Positions 1,315 to 53,054 of a stretch of 53,289 bases of DNA are shown here, piece by piece. Source of the stretch: a virus (Duplodnaviria > Caudoviricetes); the IMG/VR virus record IMGVR_UViG_3300033434_000393, positions 1-53,289 of that record, one strand, 5' to 3'. Both the position numbers and the translations under genes were made by a program. The notes under the pieces were generated by a model that worked only from the letters and a program-made list of their open reading frames with translations, had not been told where the DNA came from and did no database searches. Position 1 is the first letter of the stretch, and every line of letters begins with the position of its first letter.

Positions 1315-1332
1315 CAGCCGTAAGGGACTTGA

Positions 1333-4722: not shown

Positions 4723-6002
4723 AACCGAAAACTAAGTTACAGAAACAGGTAGCCGAGTTGAGTACTAAGCTGCCTGCGCTTACAGATAAGCAAAGAAAAT
4801 GGGCGATTGAGCATTGCTTTGAAAAGGAAGGATACCTCCGCAAAAAATCTGTTTGGTGTACTGAATGTGGTCATACATGGGAACCATTTGAGGGGTCCCT
4901 ATTATTGCAATTGACAGGCATTGTTTGTCCCCACTGTGGAAAACAACTTAAAATAGAAAGCGGGCTTAAACGAAAGAGTGATATAAGCGAGTATTATACT
5001 ATTATTACCTGTTTTAAAGGCTTCCAAGTACTCCGGCATTTTGTTGCCCGTAAGACATGCAGAGTTGGCTATCCAGCTCATTATGAGGTTAACGAGGCTG
5101 TACAGAATTGGATTACATCGGAAGGGAAAGAGACACTTATGTACCGTTCTACAAAAATGAGCTTCATGTACGTTGATTTATGGGATTGGGGATCACCATT
5201 GGAAATCAGGACACGATCTGCGAATAGAATGAAGTATGACATCTTTGCGCAATACATATATCCAGTACGCCGATACATTCCTAGCTTAACGAGGAATGGA
5301 TTCAAAGGACGCTTCCATGGTATTTCTCCATTAAGCTTGTTTAAAATGTTACTTTCAAATAGCAAGGCTGAAACTTTAATCAAGTCTAGACAATACTCGC
5401 TATTAAAGTACTTACGTAATCATGGCGATATTAATTGCTGGCCATCAGTGAGAATCTGTCTTCGCAACAACTATATCGTGAAAGATGCTTCAATGTGGAT
5501 TGACTATATCCTAATGCTTACTAATCTAGGAAAGGATGTACGTAATGCTAAATACGCCTGCCCTAGTGATTTAAGAACTGCACACGATAAAGCCCTTAAA
5601 AAGGTTCAGGATATTAAAGCTTTGAGACAAATAGAAGAGAACCGAAAAGATGCTGCAAAATATGAGGATCAATATCGCAAAATGAAGGCTAAATTTTTAG
5701 GCCTTGAATTTACTGATGGATTGATAAAAATTGCAGTGCTACATAGTGTGCAAGAGTTCTTAGAAGAGGGAGCTACAATGCACCATTGTGTATTCGGTGC
5801 CCAATATTATACTAAGGAAGACTCTCTTATCCTCTCTGCCCGCATTAACGACAAACGCATTGAAACCGTTGAAGTGTCTTTGAGGACGCTTGATGTGGTC
5901 CAGTCCCGTGGCGTTTGCAATAAGAGTACGGAATACCACGACCGGATAGTTGGGTTAGTAAAAAAGAACATAAATCTCATTCGTCAGAAAATGACGGCAT
6001 AA
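4719..6002 (+). CDS. PcfJ domain protein
   Basis: MKPKTKLQ start, zinc ribbon, EEGATMHHCV and RIETVEV motifs. Confidence 0.88.
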   Translation: MKPKTKLQKQVAELSTKLPALTDKQRKWAIEHCFEKEGYLRKKSVWCTECGHTWEPFEGSLLLQLTGIVCPHCGKQLKIESGLKRKSDISEYYTIITCFKGFQVLRHFVARKTCRVGYPAHYEVNEAVQNWITSEGKETLMYRSTKMSFMYVDLWDWGSPLEIRTRSANRMKYDIFAQYIYPVRRYIPSLTRNGFKGRFHGISPLSLFKMLLSNSKAETLIKSRQYSLLKYLRNHGDINCWPSVRICLRNNYIVKDASMWIDYILMLTNLGKDVRNAKYACPSDLRTAHDKALKKVQDIKALRQIEENRKDAAKYEDQYRKMKAKFLGLEFTDGLIKIAVLHSVQEFLEEGATMHHCVFGAQYYTKEDSLILSARINDKRIETVEVSLRTLDVVQSRGVCNKSTEYHDRIVGLVKKNINLIRQKMTA

Positions 6003-6015
6003 AGGTACTAAGTAA

Positions 6016-6801
6016 ATGGATGGATATACATTAACGGAGAAGATGAGAAAAGCACGTAGAAGTTTCAGGTTTACCGCAGTCGAACAAGCCCTTTTCTATG
6101 AACTAGTGGCTATTTGTAATGGCGAGGACTGGAGGGACATCTTTGATTGCTCGAACATTGAACTCTGTTGTGCACTAAGCATCAGTGAAAAGACTTTAGT
6201 TAAAGCCAGGGAAACATTGATTAATGCGGGATTATTCTACTATAAATCGGGTAAGAGTAAAAGAGCTGTTTGTTCTTACTCCTTTATAAAACCGCTTAGA
6301 ACTACCGGAAATATTCCGGTAGATAGTATAACCGATGAGGGAGCCAATAGTACAGCCAATAAGGGAGCCAATAGTACAGCCAATCCTTCAGACTATATTA
6401 AAACTAAAACAAAAACAAAAAATTCTCTCTCCCCCACGCGTGCGCGAGAAGGTCATGCCGCTGGAGATTTATTCCCGGATAGTGATGTATTTGAAAAATC
6501 GCTAGAGGAATGTTTCGATGAGCTAAGAGCAAATCAAAGCTGGAAAGAAACCTTTTGCATGAACATTCGGATACGAGATAAAACTTTTATGCCGGCTGAT
6601 TTTGACCAGTACTTGCAGAGCTTCTTCCGTAAGCTTGCTAACGAGGGCGAGACTAAAAAAGCGCCCAAAGACGCTATGAGCCACTTCGCACGATGGCTGG
6701 ATATTGAACTTAAAAACAAAAAAGATGGAAAAACAAATCAAAAAGGATCCGATACAGCTAGTGGGGAACCTGTTAAAGTCCGCTCGATCAGCATCCCATG
6801 A
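6016..6801 (+). CDS. Replication initiator (lambda O-like, N-terminal wHTH)
   Basis: HTH-like N-terminus, internal iteron repeats, directly upstream of a DnaC-like ATPase. Confidence 0.75.
   Translation: MDGYTLTEKMRKARRSFRFTAVEQALFYELVAICNGEDWRDIFDCSNIELCCALSISEKTLVKARETLINAGLFYYKSGKSKRAVCSYSFIKPLRTTGNIPVDSITDEGANSTANKGANSTANPSDYIKTKTKTKNSLSPTRAREGHAAGDLFPDSDVFEKSLEECFDELRANQSWKETFCMNIRIRDKTFMPADFDQYLQSFFRKLANEGETKKAPKDAMSHFARWLDIELKNKKDGKTNQKGSDTASGEPVKVRSISIP
6303..6430. repeat. Probable replication origin: palindrome, iterons and A-rich tract
   Basis: Inverted repeat TACCGGAA/TTCCGGTA at 6303-6321; 23-nt repeat at 6338-6360 and 6362-6384 giving four AGCCAAT at 12-nt period; A-rich tract about 6397-6422. 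Confidence 0.7.
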
Positions 6802-7420
6802 GGAATACACTCCGGAGCAGCTGAAAAAGATACGCCAAGATCAGACGGATAAGTTCCTGTTGGCTTGCCAGAAAGAATGCCCCTCCTTCTCAGTCAGCGA
6901 CATGAACCGGAATCTGATAAATGAAATATTCCTGTATGCCAACGGACGAAGTCAGGTTTTTGATTCCGCTAAAGGTCTTTGGCTGTATGGCCCTGTGGGT
7001 ACCGGGAAATCAACGATTATTCAGATTTTGCGTACTTATGATTTTCTTTCAAAATTAGACGATATCGGGTGGAAATCTTCCGGAGGTTTTGGCATTGTAT
7101 CCGCTTCTATGGTGTCTAACCAATTCGCTCGTAAAGGGCTTGATGGCATTGATCGGTACGCCTACAACAATGGCAAACCTGAAACATGGGCTTTCGATGA
7201 AGTTGGTCGGGAACCAAAGCCGACGAAGTACTTTGGCACGGAAATGAACGTGATGCAGTTCGTCTTTCAAACTCGGTATGAGTTCAGGTGCAAATGCTTG
7301 ACGCATGTAACCACTAACATGTCTCCGGAAGATATTACGCCCAAATACGGTGATTATATCGCCGACAGGGTGAATGAGATGTTTAATGTTGTCGAGATAA
7401 AGGGAGAAAGCAGAAGATAA
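6725..7420 (+). CDS. DnaC/IstB-like helicase-loader ATPase
   Basis: Walker A GPVGTGKST, Walker B FDEVG, TTN, YGDYIADRVNEMF. Confidence 0.85.
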   Translation: MEKQIKKDPIQLVGNLLKSARSASHEEYTPEQLKKIRQDQTDKFLLACQKECPSFSVSDMNRNLINEIFLYANGRSQVFDSAKGLWLYGPVGTGKSTIIQILRTYDFLSKLDDIGWKSSGGFGIVSASMVSNQFARKGLDGIDRYAYNNGKPETWAFDEVGREPKPTKYFGTEMNVMQFVFQTRYEFRCKCLTHVTTNMSPEDITPKYGDYIADRVNEMFNVVEIKGESRR

Positions 7421-7496
7421 AACAAAGGCGGCCTGTACACCACTACAAACCGCCCGTTATAAGCCATAAAGCCTATTCAAACACACCACAAATATA
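7419..7496 (-). ncRNA. Putative antisense sRNA (about 65 nt, plus its -7 box) upstream of the sigma-like gene
   Basis: Minus-strand TATATTTG at 7496-7489; 11-bp hairpin GGCGGUUUGUA/UACAGGCCGCC (G-U pairs only on the minus strand) followed by UUUGUUUU. Confidence 0.65.
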
Positions 7497-7514
7497 AGAA
7501 AAACTTTATGACTT

Positions 7515-8078
7515 ATGGTAAGTGCTGCGGTAAATAATTACATAGGGAAAAGATATGATCGATGGTTGGATTATGCATCATACCATTGCGGAATCGTAGG
7601 TATTCCGGATGAGGCTAACGATGTGCTGAATGAAGTATTATACTCACTATTGCAGAAGAGTGACAAGCTGCTCGAACGATTGCTCTCAACGAAAAAGAAC
7701 GGTTATACAGAGCTTGACTTCTTTGTGCTGAGAATGATTAAGCTTAATGCTACTTCGCCCACGTCTCCATATCAGAGTAAGTACAAGCGTATTCCTTCGG
7801 ATGATAACGTGGACTATACAGCGATTGAGATTGAAGATGCTCAGGAAGATGATACTGATATTTCGGGAATAGTTTTGGAAAGGATGCACCAGCTTCGTGA
7901 TGTATTTGAAAGCCTTGATCTATCCCCTCTTGCAAAGCGAGTGTTTGAGTTCCATTTCTTTCAAGATAGTAACTTTTCCGATTGGGATGGTGAGGAAACT
8001 CCGAAGCAATTGTACGAGATATACAATAAAGTGCAATCCTTGATCAAGAGGAAGTTGTCGGGGGAGTTTATCTTTTGA
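7515..8078 (+). CDS. ECF-sigma-like late transcription regulator
   Basis: Region-2-like ANDVLNEV and region-4-like LSPLAKRVFEF; sits between replication and packaging modules. Confidence 0.7.
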   Translation: MVSAAVNNYIGKRYDRWLDYASYHCGIVGIPDEANDVLNEVLYSLLQKSDKLLERLLSTKKNGYTELDFFVLRMIKLNATSPTSPYQSKYKRIPSDDNVDYTAIEIEDAQEDDTDISGIVLERMHQLRDVFESLDLSPLAKRVFEFHFFQDSNFSDWDGEETPKQLYEIYNKVQSLIKRKLSGEFIF

Positions 8079-8234
8079 TGGTGGTTCATGTGGTGCAACA
8101 GATAGCGCAACTAGTAGTCTTTGTTGATGAATTGATTGTTAAGATGAACGTATTCTTTTTAATAAAACAGTTAATAATGAGCTTATTTGATGTAAAAGAG
8201 GTGCAAATAAGAACACTGTATATAATTTATATGT

Positions 8235-8242
8235 TATATTTG
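8235..8242 (+). promoter_or_regulatory. -7 promoter element for the TA moron
   Basis: TATATTTG ending about 31 nt before the ATG at 8274. Confidence 0.6.
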
Positions 8243-8273
8243 TATACTAATTAATTATAATAGAAAATAAGTC

Positions 8274-8708
8274 ATGGCATACAGTGTTTTAGATGTAGCT
8301 AATAAAATATTGGCATATGGGGCAGAACGTGATGGAGGGGAGTTGATATCAAATCTTAAACTTCAAAAGTTGTTGTATTATATGCAAGGCTTTTATTTAG
8401 CTTATTTCCATGAGTCTCTCTTTGATGAAGAAATTGAAGCTTGGCAATATGGCCCAGTAGTTCCAGTTGTGTACGAACATTACAAGGATAATGGAAGTGC
8501 TGGAATTTCGCCGAGTGGTCAATCTCTAATTTTCAATTTGCCAAAAGAAGAAACTTTGTTTAATGAGGTCTTTAGAGTTTATGGTGATTATTCTGCAATT
8601 GGTTTGATGAATCTTACGCATAGTGAAATGCCTTGGAAATCGACAAAAATAGGAGATGTTATAGAAAAACAGAAGCTAAATTCTTTTTTTGGGAAAAGAC
8701 TTAAATAA
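8274..8708 (+). CDS. Panacea/SocA (DUF4065) antitoxin
   Basis: ISNLKLQKLLYY, IEAWQYGPVV and THSEMPW motifs. Confidence 0.9.
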   Translation: MAYSVLDVANKILAYGAERDGGELISNLKLQKLLYYMQGFYLAYFHESLFDEEIEAWQYGPVVPVVYEHYKDNGSAGISPSGQSLIFNLPKEETLFNEVFRVYGDYSAIGLMNLTHSEMPWKSTKIGDVIEKQKLNSFFGKRLK

Positions 8709-9140
8709 ATGGCGAAAAAAAAAGAAAAAAAAATTGCTATAAAACCTTTGCAAAATAATACTAAATGTTTAGATAAAAAAGGTTTGGATAGTATTGAATA
8801 TCCTCTATTTTGCTTTCAATATCTTCAAGATGATTCTATCAAGAAATGTAGAGATAGTGAATTCCTTTATAACTTTTTAATGAGATTGAAGAAGTTATCT
8901 GAAATAGGATGGAAAGAAATTTATATATCTCCAAAACATTCATTTGGAACAGAAAAGATCCCTGTTAAACAAATAAAACCTCAATTGCCACCTTCTATAA
9001 CCCCTGATATTACAGAATTAACGGTTTTTAGAGCTAGTGGAGATAACAGACCATTTTTGGGTTTTCGAACAGAAAATGTTTTCCACGTTGTTTTTATAGA
9101 AGCTGCCATTAACGATATCTATGATCATGGGTCAAAGTAG
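8709..9140 (+). CDS. Putative toxin of the Panacea pair (RelE-like/MAG6450-like)
   Basis: Abuts the antitoxin; FCFQYL...LSEIGW...GTEKIP...FR...GFR..NVFHVVFI pattern. Confidence 0.6.
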   Translation: MAKKKEKKIAIKPLQNNTKCLDKKGLDSIEYPLFCFQYLQDDSIKKCRDSEFLYNFLMRLKKLSEIGWKEIYISPKHSFGTEKIPVKQIKPQLPPSITPDITELTVFRASGDNRPFLGFRTENVFHVVFIEAAINDIYDHGSK

Positions 9141-9260
9141 CGAAGTTGGGCTAAAATATAATTATCTGTAACGAAATATAGATATATTCATCATTATTAG
9201 TGCCCTTATCGGCATGTCCCGACATACTGCACTTTAAAACGTATAAAAAAAGCCTTCCTT

Positions 9261-9271
9261 TTTATATTTTA
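9261..9271 (+). promoter_or_regulatory. Putative late promoter, copy 1
   Basis: TTTATATTTTA starting 23 nt before ATG 9284. Confidence 0.65.
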
Positions 9272-9283
9272 CGATAAAAAGGC

Positions 9284-10693
9284 ATGGAAGATATAAAGCT
9301 GGATCCAAAGAACTTTCGCATTCATAACGACCGGAACAAAAATATTATTCGTAAGAGTCTAGAAGATTGTGGTGCCGGTCGTTCTGTACTGATAGATAAA
9401 GAAAATTACCTGATAGCCGGCAACGGCGTCTACGAAGAAGCAAAGTCATTAGGTATACCGGTACGAGTTATTGAAACTAACGGGAAAGAATTAGTTGTTG
9501 TAAAACGTACAGACCTCTCCCTTGACGATAATCGGCGTAAACTCCTCGCACTTGCAGATAACCATGCTTCCGATACTTCCGAATTTGATATGAACTTGGT
9601 TATAGAGAATTTCTCTGAAGACATATTAAAAGATTGGGAGTTCTCTTTAGATGATATTGACTTCGGAGATGAATTACCCGCTTCCACATCAAAACCGAAT
9701 AATCTTGCTGAAAGATTTATCATTCCTCCTTTTTCCATCCTGGATACAAAACTGGGAAGATGGCAGGAGCGCAAACGAGATTGGCTATCTCTAGGAATCA
9801 AAAGTGAAGAGGGACGAGATAAAGAAATTACCTACTCACACTCGGCCCAAAATCCTGCTATTTATGAAGTACGCAACAGAATGCGTGAAAAGCTTGGTTA
9901 TGATCCGTCCTGGGATGAAATAACAGAGTATTGCCAAAAGCACAATATCTCCATGCTGGATGGCACGTCTGTCTTCGATCCTGTTCTTTGCGAGCTTGCC
10001 TACCGTTGGTTTAATATTTCTGAAGGGATTGTTCTTGATCCTTTTGCCGGTGGTTCCGTACGTGGTATCGTTGCCTCTAAATTGAGATATTGCTATAGAG
10101 GCGTTGATCTTCGTGCTGAGCAGGTTGAGGCGAACTATAAAAATGCTAAGGAAGTATTGCAACATAAATTAGGCTATTCTCCAATAGACCCGGCATGGAG
10201 ATGTGGTGACAGTTGCGATGTGGATAAACATTTTGAAGGATTGAAAGCTGATTTGATCTTTAGTTGCCCGCCTTATGCTGACCTCGAGGTTTATTCAGAC
10301 GATCCGAAAGATCTGTCAAATATGAACTATGGAGATTTTCTTACTGCGTATCGGAAGATCATTCTAAAAAGCTGTGCTATGCTTCGTGATAATCGTTTCG
10401 CCATATTTGTAGTTGGTGAAGTACGAGCAAAGAATGGAGCATATTATAATTTCGTCGGTGATACGATAAGTGCCTTCATAGAAGCGGGGTTACATTATTA
10501 CGATGAAATGATACTAGCTACTCAGATAGGCTCTTTAGCTATGCGTGCAGGCAATCAATTCAACCATTCCCGGAAGATAGGAAAGACGCACCAGAATGTT
10601 CTTGTGTTCTTCAAAGGAGATATGAAACAGATTCCTTCATTATACCCAGAGCTTGATTTACGTGAAGAAGATTTAATTGGAGAAGATATTTAA
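9284..10693 (+). CDS. ParB-like N-terminal domain fused to an amino-DNA methyltransferase
   Basis: IAGNG...LADN ParB-like region; DPFAGGS (motif I) and SCPPY (motif IV). Confidence 0.85.
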   Translation: MEDIKLDPKNFRIHNDRNKNIIRKSLEDCGAGRSVLIDKENYLIAGNGVYEEAKSLGIPVRVIETNGKELVVVKRTDLSLDDNRRKLLALADNHASDTSEFDMNLVIENFSEDILKDWEFSLDDIDFGDELPASTSKPNNLAERFIIPPFSILDTKLGRWQERKRDWLSLGIKSEEGRDKEITYSHSAQNPAIYEVRNRMREKLGYDPSWDEITEYCQKHNISMLDGTSVFDPVLCELAYRWFNISEGIVLDPFAGGSVRGIVASKLRYCYRGVDLRAEQVEANYKNAKEVLQHKLGYSPIDPAWRCGDSCDVDKHFEGLKADLIFSCPPYADLEVYSDDPKDLSNMNYGDFLTAYRKIILKSCAMLRDNRFAIFVVGEVRAKNGAYYNFVGDTISAFIEAGLHYYDEMILATQIGSLAMRAGNQFNHSRKIGKTHQNVLVFFKGDMKQIPSLYPELDLREEDLIGEDI

Positions 10694-11860: not shown

Positions 11861-11871
11861 TTTATATTTTA
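11861..11871 (+). promoter_or_regulatory. Putative late promoter, copy 2
   Basis: TTTATATTTTA starting 22 nt before the terS ATG. Confidence 0.65.
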
Positions 11872-11882
11872 ATAAAAAAGCA

Positions 11883-12383
11883 ATGGCAAAGTATAATAAA
11901 AAGATAGTTGAGGATATCTGTTCGCTCATACGTACCGACAGTTATACTATTGCCGAAATATGCGAAAAGGTAGGAATCGTCAAAGATACATATTACTGTT
12001 GGCTTAAAACAAAATCGGACTTTTCGGACGCTATAAAAAAGGCCGAAGATGAATTTAATGACTTAATAGTTGCTGAGGCTAAGAAATCCCTTGTAAAGAT
12101 GATCCGAGGCTATACAGTCCAAGAAAAGCGAACCGTGACAGCTGATACCGGAAAGAAAGATGATAATGGAAAACCTATTGTCAGAGTAAAGGAACATGTT
12201 GTTGCTGATAAACATTACCAACCGGTTCCGGCAGCCGTAATTTTTGCTCTTACCAATCGTGACCCTGATAACTGGAAGAATAGACAGGAGAATAAAGTAT
12301 CCGGTGAAGTAGGTATTAAAAGCAGTTTGGAAAGTCTGTCTGATGAAGAACTTCAAAAGATTGTGGATGGAGACGCCGACTGA
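11883..12383 (+). CDS. terS: Terminase small subunit
   Basis: N-terminal HTH, AVIFALTNRDPDNW, LSDEEL tail; overlaps terL. Confidence 0.85.
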   Translation: MAKYNKKIVEDICSLIRTDSYTIAEICEKVGIVKDTYYCWLKTKSDFSDAIKKAEDEFNDLIVAEAKKSLVKMIRGYTVQEKRTVTADTGKKDDNGKPIVRVKEHVVADKHYQPVPAAVIFALTNRDPDNWKNRQENKVSGEVGIKSSLESLSDEELQKIVDGDAD

Positions 12384-15210: not shown

Positions 15211-15249
15211 TCATACTTTTTGTAAAGAATTGGATTATATTCTTTCTTC

Positions 15250-15260
15250 TTTATATTTTA
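15250..15260 (+). promoter_or_regulatory. Putative late promoter, copy 3
   Basis: TTTATATTTTA starting 23 nt before the portal ATG. Confidence 0.65.
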
Positions 15261-15272
15261 AGAGAAAAGAAT

Positions 15273-16757
15273 ATGCCAGACATTTATTCTATTCTCTTAA
15301 AAAACAAAGATAACTTCGGGCATGCTGTTAGTGAGCTGTCTGTTGATACGATTGAGAACCGCACACCAGTAGAGTACAAAGAAGAGTATAACGGTGATCG
15401 TAGGCGTCGTAAATCATCTGTTGGTTGGCGTGAGCCTAAAAGATTGGAAGTCTATTCCGATACGATTGTAGATGCGAAAGGTGATCCAATTCGCCTTGAT
15501 GATAAGATCGTAGATGTTGCCCGTATTGTGACTAACTTTCCAAAGAAAACAGTTCGTACGGCAGCCGCCTTCATGATGGGTGGTAAAATGAACATCACTG
15601 CCGATAATCAGGATGATGGTTTCAATGAGTTTAAAAACGTCTGGACTAAGAAACTCAAAATGCAATCAGTCCTGAAGCGCTTCGCCCGTAAGGTGATGTC
15701 GGAAACGAAAGCCGCCATTATCTTTTACCCTGCAATCTCCGTACATTGGAGTGGTGCCCAAAGCACAACACTTAAATGCAAGATACTTTGTCTCCCCGAT
15801 AAAGATAACGTGCTATATGAATTCTATCCGCATTTCAATGATGATGATGATATGGACGGGTTCATACATCGTTACCAAGTATTGTCTGATGATAATATGG
15901 TCCGTGAACGTGCTGTTATCTGGACAAGAGATAAGATCATAACCGGCATTCAAACATGGGGTGGCTGGGATGTGAAAGAAGTCATAAATCCTTTTGGCCT
16001 TATCCCGGTAGTTTACGCAGAAATAAACTCTCCGGTGTGGGATGAAGTTGCCCCCATGATGGATGCTCGTGAGATGAGGCTGTCTCGTATGGCAGATACG
16101 AATGATTACTTCTCGGAACCAATCCTTAAAACCTTTGGCGAAACAGACTTGCCGGGAAAAAACACCGTTGGAAAAGAACTTTCATTTCCGGTTAAAATTG
16201 ATCAGGACACCGGTAAGGAATATCATGGTGATGCAGATTATCTCGCATGGCAACAGTCTATTGAATCTGTAAAGGAAGAGCTTAGCGAGACACGTAACGA
16301 GCAATTCAGCGGTACATCACAGCCTGATCTCTCATTCGATAACCTAAAGGGCATCGGAAATATATCAGGCGTTGCAAGACGGTTTATGATGATCGATGCA
16401 GAGATCATGGCCAGTGAAAACATGGAGGTGTTCGGTCCGGCAATTCAACGTTGTGTCTCTATCATATCAGCGGGTATCGCTAATATCACCAACATCAAAT
16501 ACCGCCAACAGCTTATTGATAATTGGATTAATGTATCCTTTGAATCTATCCTTCCGAAAGATCCGGCAGAAGATGCAAATGTATTGAGTATTGCGAATGG
16601 TGGCAAGGCATTCAACTCTCAGCAGACGGTTGTTTCTAAGTCTCCTCTTACACCTCCGGGCGATGTTGAGGGAGAGCTTAAACGTATGGAAGAGGACGAG
16701 AAGAAAGAAGCCGATCGAAACAATATGGTTGGACTTACAATGGGAGGTACTTACTAA
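15273..16757 (+). CDS. Portal protein (SPP1 gp6-like)
   Basis: 494 aa; NPFGLIPVVY, SRMADTNDYFSEPIL, ISGVA; position after terminase. Confidence 0.88.
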   Translation: MPDIYSILLKNKDNFGHAVSELSVDTIENRTPVEYKEEYNGDRRRRKSSVGWREPKRLEVYSDTIVDAKGDPIRLDDKIVDVARIVTNFPKKTVRTAAAFMMGGKMNITADNQDDGFNEFKNVWTKKLKMQSVLKRFARKVMSETKAAIIFYPAISVHWSGAQSTTLKCKILCLPDKDNVLYEFYPHFNDDDDMDGFIHRYQVLSDDNMVRERAVIWTRDKIITGIQTWGGWDVKEVINPFGLIPVVYAEINSPVWDEVAPMMDAREMRLSRMADTNDYFSEPILKTFGETDLPGKNTVGKELSFPVKIDQDTGKEYHGDADYLAWQQSIESVKEELSETRNEQFSGTSQPDLSFDNLKGIGNISGVARRFMMIDAEIMASENMEVFGPAIQRCVSIISAGIANITNIKYRQQLIDNWINVSFESILPKDPAEDANVLSIANGGKAFNSQQTVVSKSPLTPPGDVEGELKRMEEDEKKEADRNNMVGLTMGGTY

Positions 16758-18029: not shown

Positions 18030-18040
18030 TTTATATTTTA
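18030..18040 (+). promoter_or_regulatory. Putative late promoter, copy 4
   Basis: TTTATATTTTA just after the terminator, 42 nt before the scaffold ATG. Confidence 0.65.
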
Positions 18041-18071
18041 AAGGAAAAAGTATCAATCAAAAAACATTGTT

Positions 18072-22689: not shown

Positions 22690-23217
22690 ATGATTAGATA
22701 CTTAGCACAAATAGAATCAGAGACAATCACCGAACAGGCGATTAAGATTGATTTTGATTTCAGCAATAGAGAATCAATACCGGATGGAGAGGATCCGGGT
22801 GATAGCATCATTATTAACCCTATTACTTGCCGGACATGGTTCAGGATAAGGCCTCTTCTTTTGCAAATTGACGAAGAAGATCTGGGGAGGATGATTGAAA
22901 AGCAGGGCGTGATAAACGAAAATCTTCCAGAGATAATGGACAAATATGGAGAGCTTCTTATTGACATCGTTTGTCTTGGTATTCACAACAAGAAGAGCGA
23001 ACCGCCTGCATGGTTCAGGGACGTTCTTATTGATAACAGTACTTGGGAGGATATACGCATCCTGCTTAATGCAATTATCTACCGGATAGGATACTTCCCT
23101 TTTTGCAACTCTATCACGACGCTAGCGAACGTGAGCCCGTTAAGGACGGAAGCGGAGATAATAGCCGCTCAAAAGAATTTAATGAGTTGGCAGGACTCAG
23201 TCAAGCAAGATTCTTAG
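22690..23217 (+). CDS. Tail assembly chaperone (gpG-like)
   Basis: Position between tail tube and tape measure; in-frame slippery site. Confidence 0.75.
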   Translation: MIRYLAQIESETITEQAIKIDFDFSNRESIPDGEDPGDSIIINPITCRTWFRIRPLLLQIDEEDLGRMIEKQGVINENLPEIMDKYGELLIDIVCLGIHNKKSEPPAWFRDVLIDNSTWEDIRILLNAIIYRIGYFPFCNSITTLANVSPLRTEAEIIAAQKNLMSWQDSVKQDS

Positions 23218-23462
23218 TCAATGCGCATGAAGCTTTAGGGCTTACATATAATGAGACGCTGGAAAGCAGCTATGCTCTTATAGAGGCTATGTTACAGGAA
23301 TACATCTACATACAACGCGAGAAAGAGCGATCAATGAATAGTGGAAGTGATGATAATGGAGACTATGAGTGGGTTGAATTGCCATCCTTTGATGATCCCG
23401 GCAAAACGATCAGATACAAAAAATATTATGATGTTGGAGGAGTGATTAAGCCCGGTGAATAG
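22690..23462 (+). CDS. Tail assembly chaperone, -1 frameshift product (gpGT-like)
   Basis: C CCT TTT heptamer at 23097-23103; the -1 frame stays open to 23462. Confidence 0.75.
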
Positions 23463-23536
23463 AAAAAGTGAAATTGGATTATATATTACTAGTGAATTTG
23501 ATAGGTTGTTTACGTAATATTTGATTTTAGATTAGT

Positions 23537-23570
23537 ATGCCCTTGTCTGCTGTGAAGCATGCAAGGGCAT
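23537..23570. terminator. Hairpin between convergent genes
   Basis: ATGCCCTTG...CAAGGGCAT. Confidence 0.65.
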
Positions 23571-23576
23571 AATTTA

Positions 23577-24644
23577 TTATATATTTAAGTTTGACAATCC
23601 TGCGTTCAATATCATTTGAGCTAATTCTAGGCCTCCTATTAGTTGAACATTCTCTTTTTTCGCTTTATCTATAGCGTCATCCGTAAATTTGTCAGCTGAA
23701 GATATGACCCAATTTATTCTAGAATAGTTATCATTGTTATCTTCATTGCCATCTTCTAACATATCCCGATTTTTATTCTTGATATAATTTGATATTTGAT
23801 CGATAGCAAAGGAATTTGTACTACCCTCATGAAATTTAACTTGGCAATAAATAATCAACTTAAGAGAATCAAATATTGCTATAACATCAGCATCGCCTTC
23901 TTTATATTTTTGATTTTTAGGTGGAATATCAACTGCTGTAGCACCAGTACTTTCAAAATACCGTTTAACCAAGGTTTCTAATTTATCAGGATTTAGAACA
24001 TCTCTTATTAGTTTTAGAATCTGGGGTGACAAATTTTCAATAATTGTAGAACGAATATTTATGGGCTTTTGCTTTTTGAATGCGTCAATCGCTTTGTTTA
24101 TACTATCAGAAATATCATTTATAAGCGCATTTGTAGATCGTATTTTTAATCTTGCAGTAAGGCTGGCATCGGCATATTCATATCTGGAGATATTAATTTC
24201 TATAGGTTCAACTTCCCATACAAAGCCGAGGTCTATAATTGACCCATCGGCTGTTTTATATAATCCACCTTGGAGACTAAGGCTATTTCCATTACAGTCT
24301 TGTAAATTTGCAATAACAATGTTTCCTATTTCTAGAGGCTTTTCACCTACTATTTTGTAAATAGAAAAGGTGCCAGATTTAGGGACAATAATTACATCTC
24401 CTTTTTTAAACCCTTCGATAAATCTCCATAAATTATGCCTTGTTTTTTCTTTTTTGTCCCAAATTGAATCACACTTTTTTTCAAAAATAGGCCATCTTTC
24501 TTGCCAAGTATTTCCAGCATTTAAAACTGAATCAATAATATCAATATTGATAAATTCAGAAAATCCTATACATAAAAGATTCTTGTCCAATAGTGGATAA
24601 GCTACTTCAGCGTGATGAGAAATACGGTGTAACCATGTATTCAT
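23577..24644 (-). CDS. Mrr-like restriction endonuclease moron
   Basis: C-terminal LETLV...GDADVIA...QVK (D...QxK) Mrr catalytic pattern. Confidence 0.75.
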   Translation of the reverse strand: MNTWLHRISHHAEVAYPLLDKNLLCIGFSEFINIDIIDSVLNAGNTWQERWPIFEKKCDSIWDKKEKTRHNLWRFIEGFKKGDVIIVPKSGTFSIYKIVGEKPLEIGNIVIANLQDCNGNSLSLQGGLYKTADGSIIDLGFVWEVEPIEINISRYEYADASLTARLKIRSTNALINDISDSINKAIDAFKKQKPINIRSTIIENLSPQILKLIRDVLNPDKLETLVKRYFESTGATAVDIPPKNQKYKEGDADVIAIFDSLKLIIYCQVKFHEGSTNSFAIDQISNYIKNKNRDMLEDGNEDNNDNYSRINWVISSADKFTDDAIDKAKKENVQLIGGLELAQMILNAGLSNLNI

Positions 24645-24660
24645 AAAGCAAATGAATTAA

Positions 24661-24858
24661 TTATTTGTTTAGCTCAATAAGTTGGGCCATTAATTTAGCG
24701 TTATCTTTTTGAAGATTTGCAATCAGATGTTTTTGATAAGCAATCATTCCTTCAATTCTCCCAATTCTTCGACCTTTTTCAAAGTCATTGGCTTTTTCGC
24801 TGCTTGGCATGTTTTTGTCGATATTACCAACGCCTGCATTTTCATCTTCCCTGGCCAT
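24661..24858 (-). CDS. Small hypothetical protein downstream of a structured leader
   Basis: 65 aa with a C-terminal coiled coil; first gene of the moron operon. Confidence 0.55.
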   Translation of the reverse strand: MAREDENAGVGNIDKNMPSSEKANDFEKGRRIGRIEGMIAYQKHLIANLQKDNAKLMAQLIELNK

Positions 24859-24880
24859 TGTACTAATGAATTAATGAATA

Positions 24881-25060
24881 GATAAAAGAAAGGCTATCTC
24901 CTCCCTTATTCCGACCAAGGAAACATAACATACTTAACTTTGAGAGGTTATGCAGTAAAGGGACTTGATAGCCTATATTGTATGTACAACATGAGCGTAA
25001 CAACTCCTCTCAAAAGTAAATATGTATTGTTTCCCTTGGTCTTGGAATACCGCAAAGGTA
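24881..25060 (-). ncRNA. Structured leader/antisense-type RNA with its promoter
   Basis: TACCTTTG at 25060-25053; about 41-bp imperfect stem (25049-25006 with 24947-24907); loop element 24974-24958 can pair with 24907-24891, which is followed by a U tract. Confidence 0.7.
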
Positions 25061-25093
25061 TGCATTCTATAATAAAAATAAAAACTCACCCGA

Positions 25094-25104
25094 TTTATAT
25101 TTTA
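25094..25104 (+). promoter_or_regulatory. Putative late promoter, copy 5
   Basis: TTTATATTTTA starting 28 nt before the tape measure ATG. Confidence 0.65.
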
Positions 25105-25121
25105 CTATAAATGATATAACT

Positions 25122-28100
25122 ATGGGTATACAGAATCAAAACAATGCATTGGTTTTTGCTTCCGGAATAGATAATTCGGGGTTGAAGTCAGATGCCGAAG
25201 AGGGCAAGAGTATAGTAAAGGGTATGACAGATTCTGTTGTATCGGAAGGCAATAAGATGAATGATGCTTTATCTAATACATCAGGAGCCACACAAGGAAT
25301 TAGAAGCATTAAGAATGAATCCGAAAGCTTATTTAAGTCATTCAAACCGACTGAAGAATCAGCAAAGAGAATGCGTGAGTACATAACTTCTCTGAATGGG
25401 GTTAATATCAGAAGTCTGCCGGAACAAATTAAGAATACGAAAGTCCTAGTAAAGCAAACAGAGGAAGATATTAAGTCTCTTCAACAAACATTCGAAAAAG
25501 CAGCTCCGGGAAAAGCCAAGATGTTTGCTTTAAGCGAATTAGAAAAAGCGAAGAAAGTTCTTACGGAAACTAAGGGAGAGCTTGCAAATCTTGAATCTCA
25601 ACAGGGAAAGACATCCACAACAGCCGGACGTCTCACTTCACAGATTCGGGTTCTAAAAGATGAGATGTCTAAAATGGCTATGGCCGGAGGGCGTGATTCG
25701 CAAGCTTACGACGATTTGCGACAAAAAGCCCTGTTATTACAGAGGCAGCTTAATGGCACCAACAAACAAATGAAGATACTTGCCAGCCCAATGGCTAATT
25801 TCCAAGGTGTTATTTCAGGAGTGACAGGTCTTACAGGTGCTTTGTCTGCCGGGATGGGCGTAATGGGTTTGTTTTCTAGTGAGAACGCCAATCTGGCCAA
25901 GATACAAACTAAGCTTCAATCTGTCATGGCAATCACCATAGGACTTCAACAGGTAGCTACGACACTTAACAAAAACTCACCTTTTCAGCTTGTTACTATG
26001 GCCAAGGCGCATAATCTGCTAACTGCCGCCAATACTCGTTTGGCTGTCGCTCTTGGTATCTCGAATGTGGCTGCAAAAGCTCTCATGGCCACTCTTACGC
26101 TTGGTGCCACTGTTGTTGTTACCGGGCTAATAGTCGCGTGGAATAAATATAGCTCCCATCAAGAGCAGATGGCCGAAAAACAAAAAGAGATAGAGAAAGA
26201 GGTTTCAGACGCTATTAATGGCGCATCCTCAACGATGGCCGAGCAGATGGTTACCCTATACAAGTTGATAGGCCGATGGGACTCTCTTGGAGGTAATCTA
26301 AAAAAACAAAAGAAGTTTATTACCGAAAATAAAGACGAATTCCATAAGTTGGGAATATCAGTTAACACCGTTACTGAAGCGGAAAACGTATTGGACGGTA
26401 GAACAGAGGCTGTTGTGAATGCTATGATGAAACGAGCACGAGCGACCATTTATGCTAAAATGGCTATGGATGAATACGAGAAGATGGCACGTGGCGAACT
26501 GCAAGCGCAACTTATCATGGACGCCGCACCAACTGAAGATGATTACAAGAAGACACGGAAATCAAAATCAGCAGGTACAAGTACGGGGGTGTTCGAAACA
26601 ACAGAAACCTACATTGATAAATCCGACACTAAGAATGCTGAGGCCAATCGCAAGAAACGTGCAGATAAAGTACGCATAGGTGCACAAGTCCATCTTATCT
26701 GGGGTAATAAGGTAATAGATTCAGCAGCCAAATTAGAGAAGACAATAAATGCTGATTTGGAGAAAGCCAAAATCACCCCATTCAATGGTGATGATAGTTA
26801 TAAGAAAGATGCGGACGCGGCAAAGAAAGCGGCCGAAAAGGCAAATAAGGAAAAAGTTGAAGCAGCTGAACGTATTGGCCAGATAAAGGAAAATGATCAA
26901 AAGATTAAAGAGATATACACCCAGGGCGAACTTGATGCTCAGCAGTCCAGAATCAATGCTATGGAGGATGGCTACACCAAACAACAGGCACAAATAGACC
27001 TTGACCATAAAAAGAGAATAACTGATGCGGATAAGAAGGCCCAAGAACTTATCAAGATAGCACAGGAGAATGAAGAAAAATTATGGCTCAACAAGCATCC
27101 GGATCATGAGAAGAAAGGTGAAGTCTTCACCCCTACCATAAAGACTGTCTCCCAATTGCCTAAGGAACAACAAAATATCATTTCTACCGACAAAAGTAAC
27201 GCCGATAGAGATAAGATCAAGTCTGAAAAAGATTTATTGAAGTCCTTGAAGGACCAATATCAATCCTATACAGATGAACGTCTCGCTATAGAGAAGAAGT
27301 ACAATGATGATATTGAAGCCCTAAAGAAAGAGCGAGAAAAAGCACAGGCGCAAGGAGACACAGCACAGGTCGATGTAATAGACAGAAGTATAGGGAAAGC
27401 CGATACAGATAAAGGTAAATCTTTAGCATCGGTTGATTTTAAGCAACTCAAAGAGTCTCCGGACTACGTGAGAGCCTTTGAAAACTTGAAGCAATCTTCA
27501 ACGGAAACGCTTAATTCCCTGCTTTCTCAATTCGAGAACGCAAAACAAGTAGCCGCCGAGACATTAGATCCTGAACAGCTCCGCGAGTATACGAAAACGA
27601 TTTCTGATATCATGGACGAGCTCGAGAATCGCAACCCGTTCGAAATGCTCGCTCAGCGTAAGTCAGAACTTGCGGAAGCTGAAAAAGCACTCGCAGAGGC
27701 TCAGAAAAACATGGATGACGTTAAAGGCGGCAAGAAAGTAGTCGCTAGTACCAGTTATAACCAAAAGACGGGTAAGATAGACAAAACTTATTTGACGGAG
27801 GAGAAAGCACTATCCAAACTTAACAAGGCGAAAGCTGAAGTCATACAGAAAGATGCTAATGTAACCAAAGCGGAGAAGAAAGTTACAGAACAAATAAGCG
27901 ATCTCTCAACCTCTTTAACTGACGTCGGCTCTGCCATTGGAGGAACTGCGGGTGAAATAATCTCATTGGTTGGAAACATAGGCAGCTTTGCTATGTCAGC
28001 TATGGATGGCATCAAGACCGTTTCAAATACTACCGCACAGTCTGTCAGTAGCATAGAAAAGGCATCTGTTATTCTTGCTATCATCAGTACCGCTATTCAG

Positions 28101-29210
28101 CTTGCTACTAAGGTGGCCGAATTAATATCAGGCAAAAGCAAGGAACAAGCCGACACTGAGAAGCTGCAAGGTGTGACAGAGAAGATATCTCAGATACAGG
28201 ACACAATTAACTCTCTTATCGAAAAACGTATAGACCTTATCAATGCGGCTACGAATGCGGAGAAAGGTTATTTGGCTTCTTTGACACAAACTTCCATCGA
28301 TGTTCAGAAGAAGTATTATGAACAGCAGTTTGAAAGCTTGTTGGGAAATGATTTCTTAGCAAAGAAAGGTAAGAATAACAACCTTTCATTATCTGAATTA
28401 GGTATAAGCTCCATCGAAGAACTGAAAGAGTTCATGTCAAGTAATAATCTCCTTGACTATTTGAACAATGGCTTCGGCATTCGTAATTTAGATGATTGGC
28501 AAGAACTGATTGACGCATGGGATGATTTGGCGGATAAAGAAGAAGAGGTTTCCAATGCTTTGTCGGAATCTCTAACCGGTCTGTCCTTCGATGATGCAAA
28601 GGATGCTTTGGATGATTTCCTTTTAAGCGCTGATACTACCGAGCAGACTATAGCTGATAACTTCGAGGACTATATGAAGAATGCGATCCTCAATATTGTG
28701 AAGACTACTTATATGACTGACGCTTTAAAGGGATGGTATGATAACTTCACCAAGGATATGAGTGATGGCGTTTTGTCCGATGATGAAGTGAAAAAGCTAC
28801 GAGAAGAATACTCTACCATTTATGACACTGCGCAATCACAAATTAACGGCCTTCTTGATACTGTCGGCATAGATAATTCTTCCAGTGAGGATGGAGTAAG
28901 TGGCAAATTACAGGATGCTCTTACCGAGGGCACGGCCAGCGAAGTACTTGGAGCTATCAATATGGGTACTCTCGACATTCGTGCGATAAAAGAGTTATTG
29001 CCTTCTCATTTTGCCAATTATGCAACTACGATGAATAATGTGTCATCTATATTGGATGAAACCCGCCAGATCAATGCAAATACACTTAGAACAGCTAACA
29101 ATACGGACGGGTTACGTGATAGTATGTCAAATCTGAATGAGAGTTTAAAAGAGATGAAAGGTGATTTAGAGGATATAAGCAAGAACACTAAAGACACATC
29201 AGGGAGGTAA
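25122..29210 (+). CDS. Tape measure protein
   Basis: 1362 aa, helical and coiled-coil with hydrophobic segments; synteny. Confidence 0.9.
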   Translation: MGIQNQNNALVFASGIDNSGLKSDAEEGKSIVKGMTDSVVSEGNKMNDALSNTSGATQGIRSIKNESESLFKSFKPTEESAKRMREYITSLNGVNIRSLPEQIKNTKVLVKQTEEDIKSLQQTFEKAAPGKAKMFALSELEKAKKVLTETKGELANLESQQGKTSTTAGRLTSQIRVLKDEMSKMAMAGGRDSQAYDDLRQKALLLQRQLNGTNKQMKILASPMANFQGVISGVTGLTGALSAGMGVMGLFSSENANLAKIQTKLQSVMAITIGLQQVATTLNKNSPFQLVTMAKAHNLLTAANTRLAVALGISNVAAKALMATLTLGATVVVTGLIVAWNKYSSHQEQMAEKQKEIEKEVSDAINGASSTMAEQMVTLYKLIGRWDSLGGNLKKQKKFITENKDEFHKLGISVNTVTEAENVLDGRTEAVVNAMMKRARATIYAKMAMDEYEKMARGELQAQLIMDAAPTEDDYKKTRKSKSAGTSTGVFETTETYIDKSDTKNAEANRKKRADKVRIGAQVHLIWGNKVIDSAAKLEKTINADLEKAKITPFNGDDSYKKDADAAKKAAEKANKEKVEAAERIGQIKENDQKIKEIYTQGELDAQQSRINAMEDGYTKQQAQIDLDHKKRITDADKKAQELIKIAQENEEKLWLNKHPDHEKKGEVFTPTIKTVSQLPKEQQNIISTDKSNADRDKIKSEKDLLKSLKDQYQSYTDERLAIEKKYNDDIEALKKEREKAQAQGDTAQVDVIDRSIGKADTDKGKSLASVDFKQLKESPDYVRAFENLKQSSTETLNSLLSQFENAKQVAAETLDPEQLREYTKTISDIMDELENRNPFEMLAQRKSELAEAEKALAEAQKNMDDVKGGKKVVASTSYNQKTGKIDKTYLTEEKALSKLNKAKAEVIQKDANVTKAEKKVTEQISDLSTSLTDVGSAIGGTAGEIISLVGNIGSFAMSAMDGIKTVSNTTAQSVSSIEKASVILAIISTAIQLATKVAELISGKSKEQADTEKLQGVTEKISQIQDTINSLIEKRIDLINAATNAEKGYLASLTQTSIDVQKKYYEQQFESLLGNDFLAKKGKNNNLSLSELGISSIEELKEFMSSNNLLDYLNNGFGIRNLDDWQELIDAWDDLADKEEEVSNALSESLTGLSFDDAKDALDDFLLSADTTEQTIADNFEDYMKNAILNIVKTTYMTDALKGWYDNFTKDMSDGVLSDDEVKKLREEYSTIYDTAQSQINGLLDTVGIDNSSSEDGVSGKLQDALTEGTASEVLGAINMGTLDIRAIKELLPSHFANYATTMNNVSSILDETRQINANTLRTANNTDGLRDSMSNLNESLKEMKGDLEDISKNTKDTSGR

Positions 29211-52272: not shown

Positions 52273-52572
52273 TTATGATTGAATAAGCTGTTGTATGATA
52301 TTGTCTGGAACCTTATTATGAATGTCGAGCATTGAAGCTGCAGTTTCTAGTTCGGAGCGCTTGACGTAATATCGTCCTCTTTCCTTATTTTTTGCCGGAT
52401 AGAATTTGATCCATGCTTTGTCGCGCCATTCTTTTACGAGGCGTTTGCCATACATTTTTTCCGCTTGTGATATTGTTATCACTTCCGGTAGTAGTCCAAG
52501 AGATTTCAATGTTTGGATCGTTCCAATCTTGATGCTCTCTGCAATAATCTTTTCTAAATAATTTTTCTCCAT
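52273..52572 (-). CDS. Excisionase-like DNA-binding protein
   Basis: ISQAEKMYGKRLVKEW...YYVKRSEL wHTH pattern. Confidence 0.6.
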   Translation of the reverse strand: MEKNYLEKIIAESIKIGTIQTLKSLGLLPEVITISQAEKMYGKRLVKEWRDKAWIKFYPAKNKERGRYYVKRSELETAASMLDIHNKVPDNIIQQLIQS

Positions 52573-52616
52573 ATCTTTGAATTTGTTTTTTAGGCTGTTT
52601 CTTTCGTGAGCTTTAT

Positions 52617-52678
52617 AGGGACTTGAGCTATTGTTAATACTACTTGATACGCATGTACATCGCTATGCTATGCTGCCT
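52617..52678. repeat. Patchwork copy of the 1323-1404 leader
   Basis: AGGGACTTGAGCT, TTGTT, ATACTACTT, ACGCAT and CTATGCTATG(C)TGCCT occur in the same order in both. Confidence 0.85.
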
Positions 52679-52691
52679 GTTATTTTTGATT

Positions 52692-53054
52692 TTAGAATTC
52701 ATATTCAGAGACTTCCTCAATTCTGTATCTCCTTACCCGTGCTCTTTTCGCATACTGAAAGTTTTGATCAATTGTAATTTGAAGAGAGATGAGAGCCAGA
52801 AAAGAAAGAGCGATTATTGATTTCTGCAATTGTTTGAAATCAATATTTAGAGCAAAAGCTCTATTTAGCCACCAAGATCCAAGTTCATTGAGTTTGCTTG
52901 TTCCTGTCTTTTTGTATGCATTATCGAGTTGGACATTAATCGTTCCGTATGCAGTGCCTAAACGATCAGCCATCTCTTTTTTTGCAAGACCGCATGCTGC
53001 TAAACCTGCGATCTGATTTTCACGCTTAGTGAGCAGGTTCGCTTTCAATTCCAT
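52692..53054 (-). CDS. LuxR-type HTH regulator
   Basis: LTKRENQIAGLAACGLAKKEMADRL...TINVQLDNAYKKTG. Confidence 0.8.
   Translation of the reverse strand: MELKANLLTKRENQIAGLAACGLAKKEMADRLGTAYGTINVQLDNAYKKTGTSKLNELGSWWLNRAFALNIDFKQLQKSIIALSFLALISLQITIDQNFQYAKRARVRRYRIEEVSEYEF

Follow-up and report, generated by a model that had tools for sequence, protein, structure and literature searches.

A widespread, uncatalogued structured leader RNA with C4/CI-like self-targeting logic in phages and prophages of Bacteroidota

The leader and its locus

The stretch of DNA analyzed here (hereafter the window) is the 53,289 bp virus record IMGVR_UViG_3300033434_000393. The record is of Bacteroides type, and its closest relatives lay in Bacteroides ihuae, a B. 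thetaiotaomicron metagenome-assembled genome (MAG), and uncultured Bacteroides. A tyrosine integrase with Arm-DNA-bind_5 and SAM_5 domains was encoded at 1-1296, and a run of plus-strand genes extended from 1361 to about 42.4 kb. Between a tail-chaperone pair (22690-23462) and the gene for a 1362-aa tape-measure-like protein (25122-29210), a minus-strand insert of 1.66 kb was found, which contained an open reading frame (ORF) of 65 aa followed by a gene for a 355-aa protein with an Mrr_cat nuclease domain. The subject of this report is the structured RNA leader that precedes these two genes on the minus strand (Table 1).

The leader is a real, widespread, and uncatalogued structured element whose self-targeting logic resembles that of the C4 and CI RNAs of phages P1 and P4. 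It was absent from Rfam 15 and occurred in at least 108 instances among phages and prophages of Bacteroidota, in gut-phage contigs and in several genera. Bacteroidota are the dominant Gram-negative phylum of the human gut, and to our knowledge the control of phage genes by RNA has hardly been explored in them. The leader offers a putative riboregulator, directly testable, in a group that initiates translation without Shine-Dalgarno pairing, and it may provide access to prophage immunity and to how defence cargo is expressed. A full-text literature search, which did not extend to supplementary files that possibly hold transcript maps, found no description of the leader, and a 2026 review of gut small RNAs (PMC13750123) contained the word "phage" 0 times.

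Fold and conservation of the hairpin

An initial annotation of the window had proposed that the minus-strand RNA starting just past the Bacteroides-type -7 box TACCTTTG (25060-25053) forms a long stem whose loop pairs with a site downstream. All of its motif coordinates were correct, and a long, imperfect hairpin was indeed predicted. The minimum free energy (MFE) of the minus-strand RNA 25070-24870 was -65.5 kcal/mol (z -6.01), none of 200 shuffled sequences folded as well, and the plus strand of the same region gave -57.0 kcal/mol. The hairpin alone (25048-24908) had 53 pairs in the MFE structure, about 35 of them below a large internal loop. The diverged leader of locus L087 folded similarly (-57.9 kcal/mol, z -5.1).

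The fold differed from the proposed one in the placement of the seed. The 17-mer that had been assigned to the hairpin loop (S2 in Table 1) was paired imperfectly in its 5' part with GGAGTTGTTACGCT (25007-24994), within a segment here called S1. The unpaired part was an internal loop of approximately 15 nt, running from the 3' end of S2 (CCCUU, ~24962-24958) through UACUGCAUAA to 24948.

Relatives were collected with a pattern for the stem base that included neither S2 nor its downstream complement, S3. This pattern found 39 viral contigs, three Bacteroides genome contigs, and one chance match in an actinomycete, and the set contained 17 different sequences, which fell into types A, B, and C. 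In the alignment of the hairpin, 95.6% of the cells were paired, compared with 34-52% when the partner column was slid. Fourteen pairs had changed on both sides, which 1 of 500 shuffles reached, and many pairs were G-U. Of the 17 sequences, 15 folded more stably as the sense strand than as the antisense strand.

In type-B phages, identity was 0.89-0.99 for the stem base, S2, S3, and the start region and 0.74-0.9 for the flanking coding DNA; the promoter region was likewise more conserved than that DNA. The middle stem was considered as a hypervariable "specificity" region and rejected as such, its identity (0.70-0.79) being barely under that of the flanking coding DNA; its variation resembles neutral drift constrained by pairing. 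S1 and S2 were nearly perfectly complementary in type B (GGGAGUUGAUAAGCCU with AGGCUAUCAAUUCCC). The internal-loop sequence UACUGCAUAA beside S2 was conserved in all three types and could act as a toehold in the modeled structure.

The TTTG of the putative promoter box was kept in all classes, and the full arrangement TTTG-N19-TAtaTTTG was present in classes F and J. A second TAnnTTTG box, TACTTTTG, was located inside the 5' half of the hairpin (25011-25018, minus strand). By eye it was not conserved in types B and C, and a transcript starting from it would lack the decoy in the 5' arm.

Pairing between S2 and S3

S2 (AGGCTATCAAGTCCCTT, 24974-24958) and S3 (AAGGGAGGAGATAGCCT, 24907-24891) were complementary at 14 of 17 positions, as 8 + 6 bp around a 3-nt mismatch. 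The cis pairing before the U tract that the initial annotation had suggested was thus found, and it co-varied in relatives. Allowing three mismatches or fewer, the complement of S2 occurred at three sites in the whole window against 0.15 expected; the third of these (12076-12092) is an apparent chance match. In the alignment of the 17 sequences, 98.7% of the S2:S3 cells were paired, compared with 37-66% in slid controls, and A-U was replaced by G-C at one pair and C-G by U-A at another in type C. Classes found later carried further variants of the second helix (UCUCC:GGAGA, CCCC:GGGG, and UUCCU:AGGAA). At the same mismatch threshold, the sole recurrent second match of the S2 complement in type-B genomes (5/5) was the cis S3; in type C, S3 itself exceeded three mismatches. 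A scan with the exact 17-mer found six loci, five of them by chance.

S3 is followed by a U-rich tract, which was present in all classes, though the wide search pattern described below required its first three U. The two form a terminator-like site (24907..24886) with eight pairs, three of them G-C, and the tail TTATCTATTC. This site is weak (-7.2 kcal/mol), and its U run lies partly within the stem.

Pairing between the 3' arm and the start codon

A wide pattern, spanning S2 to S3 and demanding the first S2:S3 helix and three U, found at least 99 viral loci and many more sequence classes. Of 116 pattern instances, 108 (52 distinct sequences) passed a filter that was blind to ORFs. Complementarity between the 3' arm of the hairpin and the start site was not a criterion of selection. 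In 98 of the 108 instances, the 3' arm nevertheless matched the start site with perfect complementarity over 6 nt or more (mostly 9-12), counted from the G or UG of the AUG. In three others, which were of type A (the window, and provirus G001 as two loci), 12 positions were paired with G-U included. For the window, the 3' arm (24924-24911) and the start region (24857-24846) formed 12 consecutive pairs, three of them G-U, with a duplex energy of -17.0 kcal/mol.

The complementarity was specific to the class. Across 11 classes, the 3' arm and its cognate start site had a mean of 12.0 consecutive pairs and -19.9 kcal/mol, compared with 7.5 pairs and -12.8 kcal/mol for non-cognate combinations, and none of 20000 permutations reached the cognate advantage. 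In addition, the base of the 5' arm repeated the sequence after the AUG of the next ORF in every class of the wide set. The pairs of 5' arm and start region were GACCAAGGAAC / AUGACCAAGGAAC, GCCAAGAAC / AUGCCAAGAACC, GCCAACGAACA / AUGCCAACGAACA, GCCAACGAGG / AUGCCAACGAGG, GCAAGAAGCAAU / AUGCAAGAAACAAU, and GACCAAGAACA / AUGACCAAGAACA. The 3' arm is therefore able to pair with either one.

A small hairpin around the AUG (UUCAUU / AAUGAA) was predicted in the full-length folds of several classes, and UUCAUUAG and AAUGAA were conserved. Of 48 distinct members, 45 had the frame upstream of the AUG closed within 3-26 codons (it was open across the leader in L188, L217, and L236), which indicates that the leader is non-coding.

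The first ORFs (59-120 aa) encoded proteins that were unrelated between classes, with only about 15 N-terminal codons in common, and only that of class D was a hydrophobic, membrane-type peptide. These shared codons, with (V/A)NNS and often TS.HET, were observed in L087, L170, L188, L216, L217, L236, and the window (24858-24800). Either coding sequence is part of the RNA element or the proteins retain a common N-terminal tag.

Table 1. Features of the leader, its operon, and the proposed trans targets in the window.
Feature	Position	Strand	Basis or remark
Bacteroides-type -7 promoter box TACCTTTG	25053..25060	-	Sequence; inferred transcription start ~25051-25046
5' arm of hairpin base AUUCCAAGACCAAGGGAAAC	25029..25048	-	Pairs with 3' arm; look-alike of ORF start region (decoy, a1/b1-like)
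Variable middle stem, 5' strand	25008..25028	-	Class-specific sequence, pairing kept
S1 GGAGUUGUUACGCU	24994..25007	-	MFE; S3 look-alike, imperfect pairing with S2
Apical hairpin CAUGUUGUACAUACAAUAU	24975..24993	-	MFE; sequence varies between classes
S2, antisense segment AGGCUAUCAAGUCCCUU	24958..24974	-	Complementary to S3
Unpaired internal loop beside S2 UACUGCAUAA	24948..24957	-	MFE; sequence conserved in types A, B, and C
Variable middle stem, 3' strand	24925..24947	-	Pairing in alignment
3' arm, anti-start-site segment GUUUCCUUGGUCGGAAU	24908..24924	-	Partner is 5' arm or 24857-24846
S3, target of S2 AAGGGAGGAGAUAGCCU	24891..24907	-	Complementarity and co-variation; with the U-rich run, weak terminator-like hairpin
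U-rich tract UUCUUUUAUC	24881..24890	-	Sequence
Small hairpin UUCAU / AUGAA	24838..24870	-	Predicted; loop shows AUG (24858-24856) and target of 3' arm (24857-24846)
First ORF, 65 aa	24661..24858	-	Hydrophilic, coiled-coil-like C-terminus, motif GRxEGMxxYQ
Cargo gene, 355 aa, C-terminal Mrr_cat restriction-endonuclease-like domain	23577..24644	-	Pfam PF04471 2.1e-9; PADLOC PDC-S02 6.3e-10
Proposed trans target AAGGGACTTGA	1322..1332	+	Exact match; leader after integrase gene; claimed part, not accepted
TAGGGACTTGA, paralogous copy of 1322 region	52616..52626	+	10/11 match

Distribution and gene context

Leaders of classes A, B, C, E, and I were located in the gap between the tail-chaperone and tape-measure genes. 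Those of other classes were co-directional with their surroundings and lay in early regions. The class D leader was found after RusA and before two DUF6291 genes and DnaB, and the class F leader after a DUF3799 nuclease-like gene and before a NUMOD4-HNH endonuclease. The class H leader followed an integrase and preceded a P22_AR_N antirepressor-like gene and a 1049-aa CHC2 primase. In L188, a member of class H, the antirepressor-like gene (~8352-8906) and the primase gene (5101-8250, both on the minus strand) stood behind the leader and first ORF, an arrangement near to the c4-icd-ant operon of P1 and the cI-alpha operon of P4. The genes headed by the leader (nuclease, antirepressor-like, and replication genes) are ones that a lysogen would need to keep in check.

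Members on genome contigs belonged to Bacteroides, Paraprevotella xylaniphila, Tannerellaceae, Ca. Symbiothrix, a Bacteroidales MAG, and Capnocytophaga. The type A element was present in B. ihuae, and type B in strains of B. xylanisolvens or B. thetaiotaomicron. Matches of the wide pattern on genome contigs were mostly due to chance: 11 of 117 loci passed the filter, and 2 of these 11 were apparently false. Five host whole genomes each contained one true copy, which makes this sample (n=5) uninformative on co-resident classes.

Two observations concern single groups of loci. In L176, L185, L190, and L201 (seven instances), the leader, S3, and U tract were intact with no ORF after them; these copies may be stand-alone RNAs or decaying. 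In L216, a match to the Rfam family DUF2693-FD (59.9 bits; 8896-8946, minus strand) was located approximately 5.5 kb from the leader.

Proposed mechanism

We interpret the segment 25051-24838 of the minus strand as the 5' leader of a small prophage operon (65-aa ORF and Mrr-type nuclease) that acts as a self-targeting riboregulator, a reading to which we assign a probability of about 0.55. The putative transcript would start from the -7 box. S2 (24974-24958), in the 3' half of its hairpin, would be antisense to S3 (24907-24891), which lies just before the U tract. The 3' arm (24924-24911), in the same half, would be antisense to the region around the start codon of the first ORF (24857-24846), presented in a small loop. 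Both targets lie downstream. In the 5' half, S1 would resemble S3, and the 5' arm would resemble the start region. As long as this half is there and base-paired, S2 and the 3' arm would be sequestered, leaving the start site free and the ORF translatable. Once the 5' half is removed by processing, displaced by some trigger, or absent, the 3' half could pair with S3 and with the start site, whether as a pseudoknot in cis or through action in trans. Such pairing would be expected to block translation of the first ORF and favor termination at the U tract, shutting down the downstream cargo.

When the 3' half was folded without the 5' half, the nested MFE structure contained S2:S3 in five of nine classes and the pairing of 3' arm and start site in four of nine. 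The two helices are mutually compatible as a pseudoknot.

Several results weigh against this interpretation. The long hairpin was the MFE structure of the full-length RNA in 9/9 classes folded. Co-folding the intact hairpin with the S3 tail gained just 0 to -1.1 kcal/mol, so that the intact RNA is not predicted to invade a trans target. S1:S2 pairing was weak in the window and in class D, seven of the 108 instances had no ORF behind the leader, and in L228 a diverged start region left only seven pairs with the 3' arm. The first S2:S3 helix and the three U are biased in the wide set by the pattern that demanded them. TAnnTTTG was not enriched in the window (68 seen, 57 expected), and the promoter is therefore inferred. 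In addition, the contigs of the RNA run that was found (X1, a metatranscriptome) covered only the flanks (23400-23513 and 25027-25989). One of them matched 25027-25131 and then continued into unrelated sequence; divergence at 25027 points to a variant phage with the same promoter and first ~20 nt of the leader and a different stem or cargo.

The hairpin as the full-length MFE structure in all classes folded and the seven leader-only copies among 108 would also be expected if the leader were passive. In that case the hairpin would be an mRNA stabilizer or RNase III site, S3 with the U tract a leaky terminator (S3 fits a simple terminator consensus), and the likeness of the 5' arm to the start region a leftover of duplication or a product of gene conversion, with no switch involved. 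We consider this unlikely. The 5' arm, 3' arm, and start region co-varied across 11 classes, and S2 co-varied with S3. Moreover, the start region of the window differed from the 5' arm by A-to-G changes that preserve G-U pairing with the 3' arm, which fits RNA pairing and not a decaying duplicate.

The integrase-proximal leader as a trans target

A further role had been given to S2 in the initial annotation. A processed apical RNA would act in trans on 1322-1357, in the leader after the integrase gene, competing there with an RNA from 52617 in a three-locus circuit that terminates the rightward operon. The 11/11 match of AAGGGACTTGA at 1322-1332 is exact. It lies 7 nt past a conserved TTTG...TATATTTG box and beside a terminator hairpin. 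In the window, the 11-mer with one mismatch allowed occurred at four sites against 1.0 expected, and 2 of 100 shuffles reached four; the sites at 1322 and 52616 are paralogous copies of one repeat and therefore count as one event. The added pairing of AGGCU with AGCCU (AGCCT, 1353-1357) involved a 5-mer that was not conserved in relatives.

Integrase-proximal leaders behind the TTTG...TATATTTG box were found in 15 relatives in addition to the window, and nine of these leaders (the window and eight relatives) were scored against their own S2 for the longest Watson-Crick match. Type A reached 11 nt in both the window and B. ihuae (shuffle p < 0.001; a shuffled 60-nt leader reached 11 nt in 0/3000 and 2/3000 cases, respectively), and the A x A duplex had an energy of -26.4 kcal/mol. 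Type C gave 7, 9, and 9 nt (p 0.18, 0.015, and 0.014), and for types A and C the cognate S2 was the best of the three types.

In contrast, all four leaders of type B, the commonest lineage, matched their own S2 over 4-5 nt (p 0.8-1.0), with mismatches that were conserved and not compensated. The type C match lay ~10 nt further downstream, within the 5' arm of the terminator, and hence at a non-homologous position. A match of 11 nt was reached by type A alone. Cognate energies for B (-11.3 kcal/mol) and C (-14.3 kcal/mol) were no better than non-cognate ones, and phages of classes D-J had no integrase-proximal leader. Matches of 10-11 nt also arise by chance in genomes of this size, and in the relative G006 the element had an 11-mer match of an unrelated kind in another part of the genome. 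The trans interaction is not a property of the family, and for the lineage of the window it is conceivable with low probability; the three-locus circuit as a whole is decidedly unlikely.

The 1322 and 52616 copies belong to two paralogous non-coding regions (1282-1400 and 52572-52680) that share GGGACTTGAGCT, then ATACTACTT..ACGCAT..CTATGCTATG.TGCCT. In the left region, which comes after the conserved promoter-like box TTTG...TATATTTG, a terminator hairpin is inserted. The two copies aligned poorly with MAFFT and were compared by eye and via relatives. They varied jointly between phages (AGGGACTTGAGCT in the window, AATGGTGTTGAGCTG in type B) and not with S2. The paralogous regions may serve as a site for a regulator, form an RNA 5' end that both share, or be related to att; if 1322 and 52616 were read as attL and attR, the integrase would fall outside the pair.

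Comparison with known systems

The self-targeting leader proposed here was compared with phage RNAs of similar layout. With the covariance models of Rfam 15, there were 0 matches at the gathering threshold in the whole window, no match to the C4 clan with E <= 10 in 24800-25120, and no match on the leader of 11 family loci. The same tool scored 68.8 bits for C4 (RF01695) and 51 bits for c4-a1b1 (RF03163) on P1 as a positive control. Membership of the C4 clan (CL00128) requires a covariance-model score at or above gathering, and the leader had none. The description of the leader as C4/CI-like, made in the initial annotation, therefore holds for layout and self-targeting logic and fails for family membership, including the proposed match to the C4 and c4-2 models; the leader probably works like C4 and CI without belonging to their families.

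The likeness to the immI region of P1 and P7 extends to the order of parts: target copies, antisense, two downstream targets of which the last is the start of a small first ORF, and then the regulated genes. In the P1 record these are annotated as a1 (48255-61), b1 (48269-76), C4 (48343-48419), a2 (48423-29), b2 (48452-59), icd, and ant, with b2 marked "repression of icd ant translation." Expression of P1 Ant is controlled by the antisense RNA C4 as well as by Icd (PMC8201110). As with C4, the complementarity has two parts and the element heads genes dangerous to a lysogen, the antirepressor-like gene of class H among them. In the present leader, the distance from S2 and the 3' arm to S3 and the start site, which lie downstream on the same strand and presumably in one transcript, was 51-67 nt. 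The target covered the start of the small first ORF in the 98 instances given above, and the pairing co-varied. Upstream duplicates of the targets were found as the 5' arm in every class and as an S1 similar to S3 in types A-C, weakly so in D.

The leader also differs from P1 C4. Its antisense occupies the 3' half of a hairpin of 140-160 nt and is paired there with the leader's own decoys, whereas that of P1 is a 77-nt RNA. Its target segments are longer (8 + 3-6 and 10-15 nt, compared with 7-8 nt), and it targets the AUG and first codons instead of the ribosome-binding site. Translation initiation in Bacteroidota does not rely on Shine-Dalgarno pairing.

According to PMC4825925, the CI RNA of P4 is processed from an untranslated leader and pairs with upstream seqA and downstream seqC, which leads to premature termination. 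The succession S1, S2, S3, and U tract corresponds to seqA, seqB, and seqC, and the class H operon runs into a primase gene as well. There is no homology to P4 CI, and the leader has a second complementarity, to the start codon, as well as a predicted weak intrinsic terminator at S3. The termination sites of P4 are Rho-dependent.

The same paper describes IsrK of Gifsy-1 as both small RNA and mRNA, a leaky terminator giving rise to a short transcript as well as an mRNA made by read-through; through pairing with the long form, the short one alters translation of a small first ORF and hence expression of a harmful downstream gene (PMC4825925). Pairing activates translation in IsrK, whereas the pairing predicted for the leader would block it, and the two are unrelated in sequence.

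Resemblance to type I toxin-antitoxin modules was also considered, in which the first ORF would be toxic and the structured leader would regulate the mRNA until processing. A small first ORF of 59-120 aa behind a structured leader with long-range alternative pairings would suit this model, as would the membrane-type peptide of class D. It is nonetheless very unlikely, since the ORF of the window is hydrophilic and coiled-coil-like, the first ORFs are unrelated between classes, no separate antisense small-RNA gene was identified, and the primary transcript is predicted to allow translation, the opposite of hok-type mRNAs. Exceedingly improbable is the view that the motifs are DNA operators of a sequence-specific protein with no RNA pairing, for although each motif occurs in direct and inverted copies and a change in protein specificity would also give co-variation, G-U is tolerated at many positions, the sense strand folds better in 15/17 sequences, approximately 40 pairs of the intervening stem co-vary without sequence conservation, the spacings (~110 and ~55 nt) are unlike those of operators, and one copy always begins exactly at the G of AUG.

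The leader may be the founding case of Bacteroidota-wide antisense "immunity" leaders, an extension that is speculative and, in our estimate, unlikely. The 3' half, freed of its 5' decoy, would act in trans, and a prophage would thereby silence the matching operon of an incoming phage. The 11 or more classes would be heteroimmunity groups like P1 and P7, and the lineage of the window would have captured the 1322 leader as a second target. Depending on the phage, the silenced operon would comprise an antirepressor, replication genes, or nuclease cargo.

Cargo and neighboring features

The 65-aa ORF had no match in Pfam, PHROG, or PADLOC. It was conserved with synonymous changes in relatives, and its matches in the Atlas were viral hypothetical proteins only. 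A word-based homologue search found two relatives of the protein besides the query. A search of viral contigs for relatives of the Mrr protein found none. In addition, blastn against the phage collection gave no match.

The segment with the Mrr_cat gene (23544-24715) was an insertion/deletion polymorphism, present in the window and run X2, whose contigs covered the whole region, and absent in G001 and in a contig of run X3. The X3 contig joined 23543 to 24716 with 87 other letters between. G001, which was 92-96% identical, had the same leader with a 59-aa ORF and lacked the nuclease gene. The gap between the chaperone and tape-measure genes is a cargo hotspot; it was empty in L012 and L013 and held three minus-strand genes in L055 and six in L087.

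Three further assignments were rejected. The RNA is not a dedicated partner of the nuclease, since G001 and most type-B phages keep the leader and small ORF without it. A retron non-coding RNA, suggested by the long hairpin before the 355-aa gene, was rejected on the grounds that the 355-aa protein is an Mrr_cat protein and not a reverse transcriptase and that most relatives have the small ORF only. A diversity-generating retroelement was rejected because there was no reverse transcriptase.

The motif TTTATATTTTA(A/C)..AAA was repeated at 9255-9294, 11861-11880, 15244-15283, 18032-18059, and 25094-25113, in each case 10-30 nt 5' of the start codons of plus-strand structural genes, the tape-measure gene included. 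It is a candidate late promoter or initiation signal. Further, a GerE/LuxR-type protein with a match to a PHROG "sigma factor" was encoded at 52692-53054.

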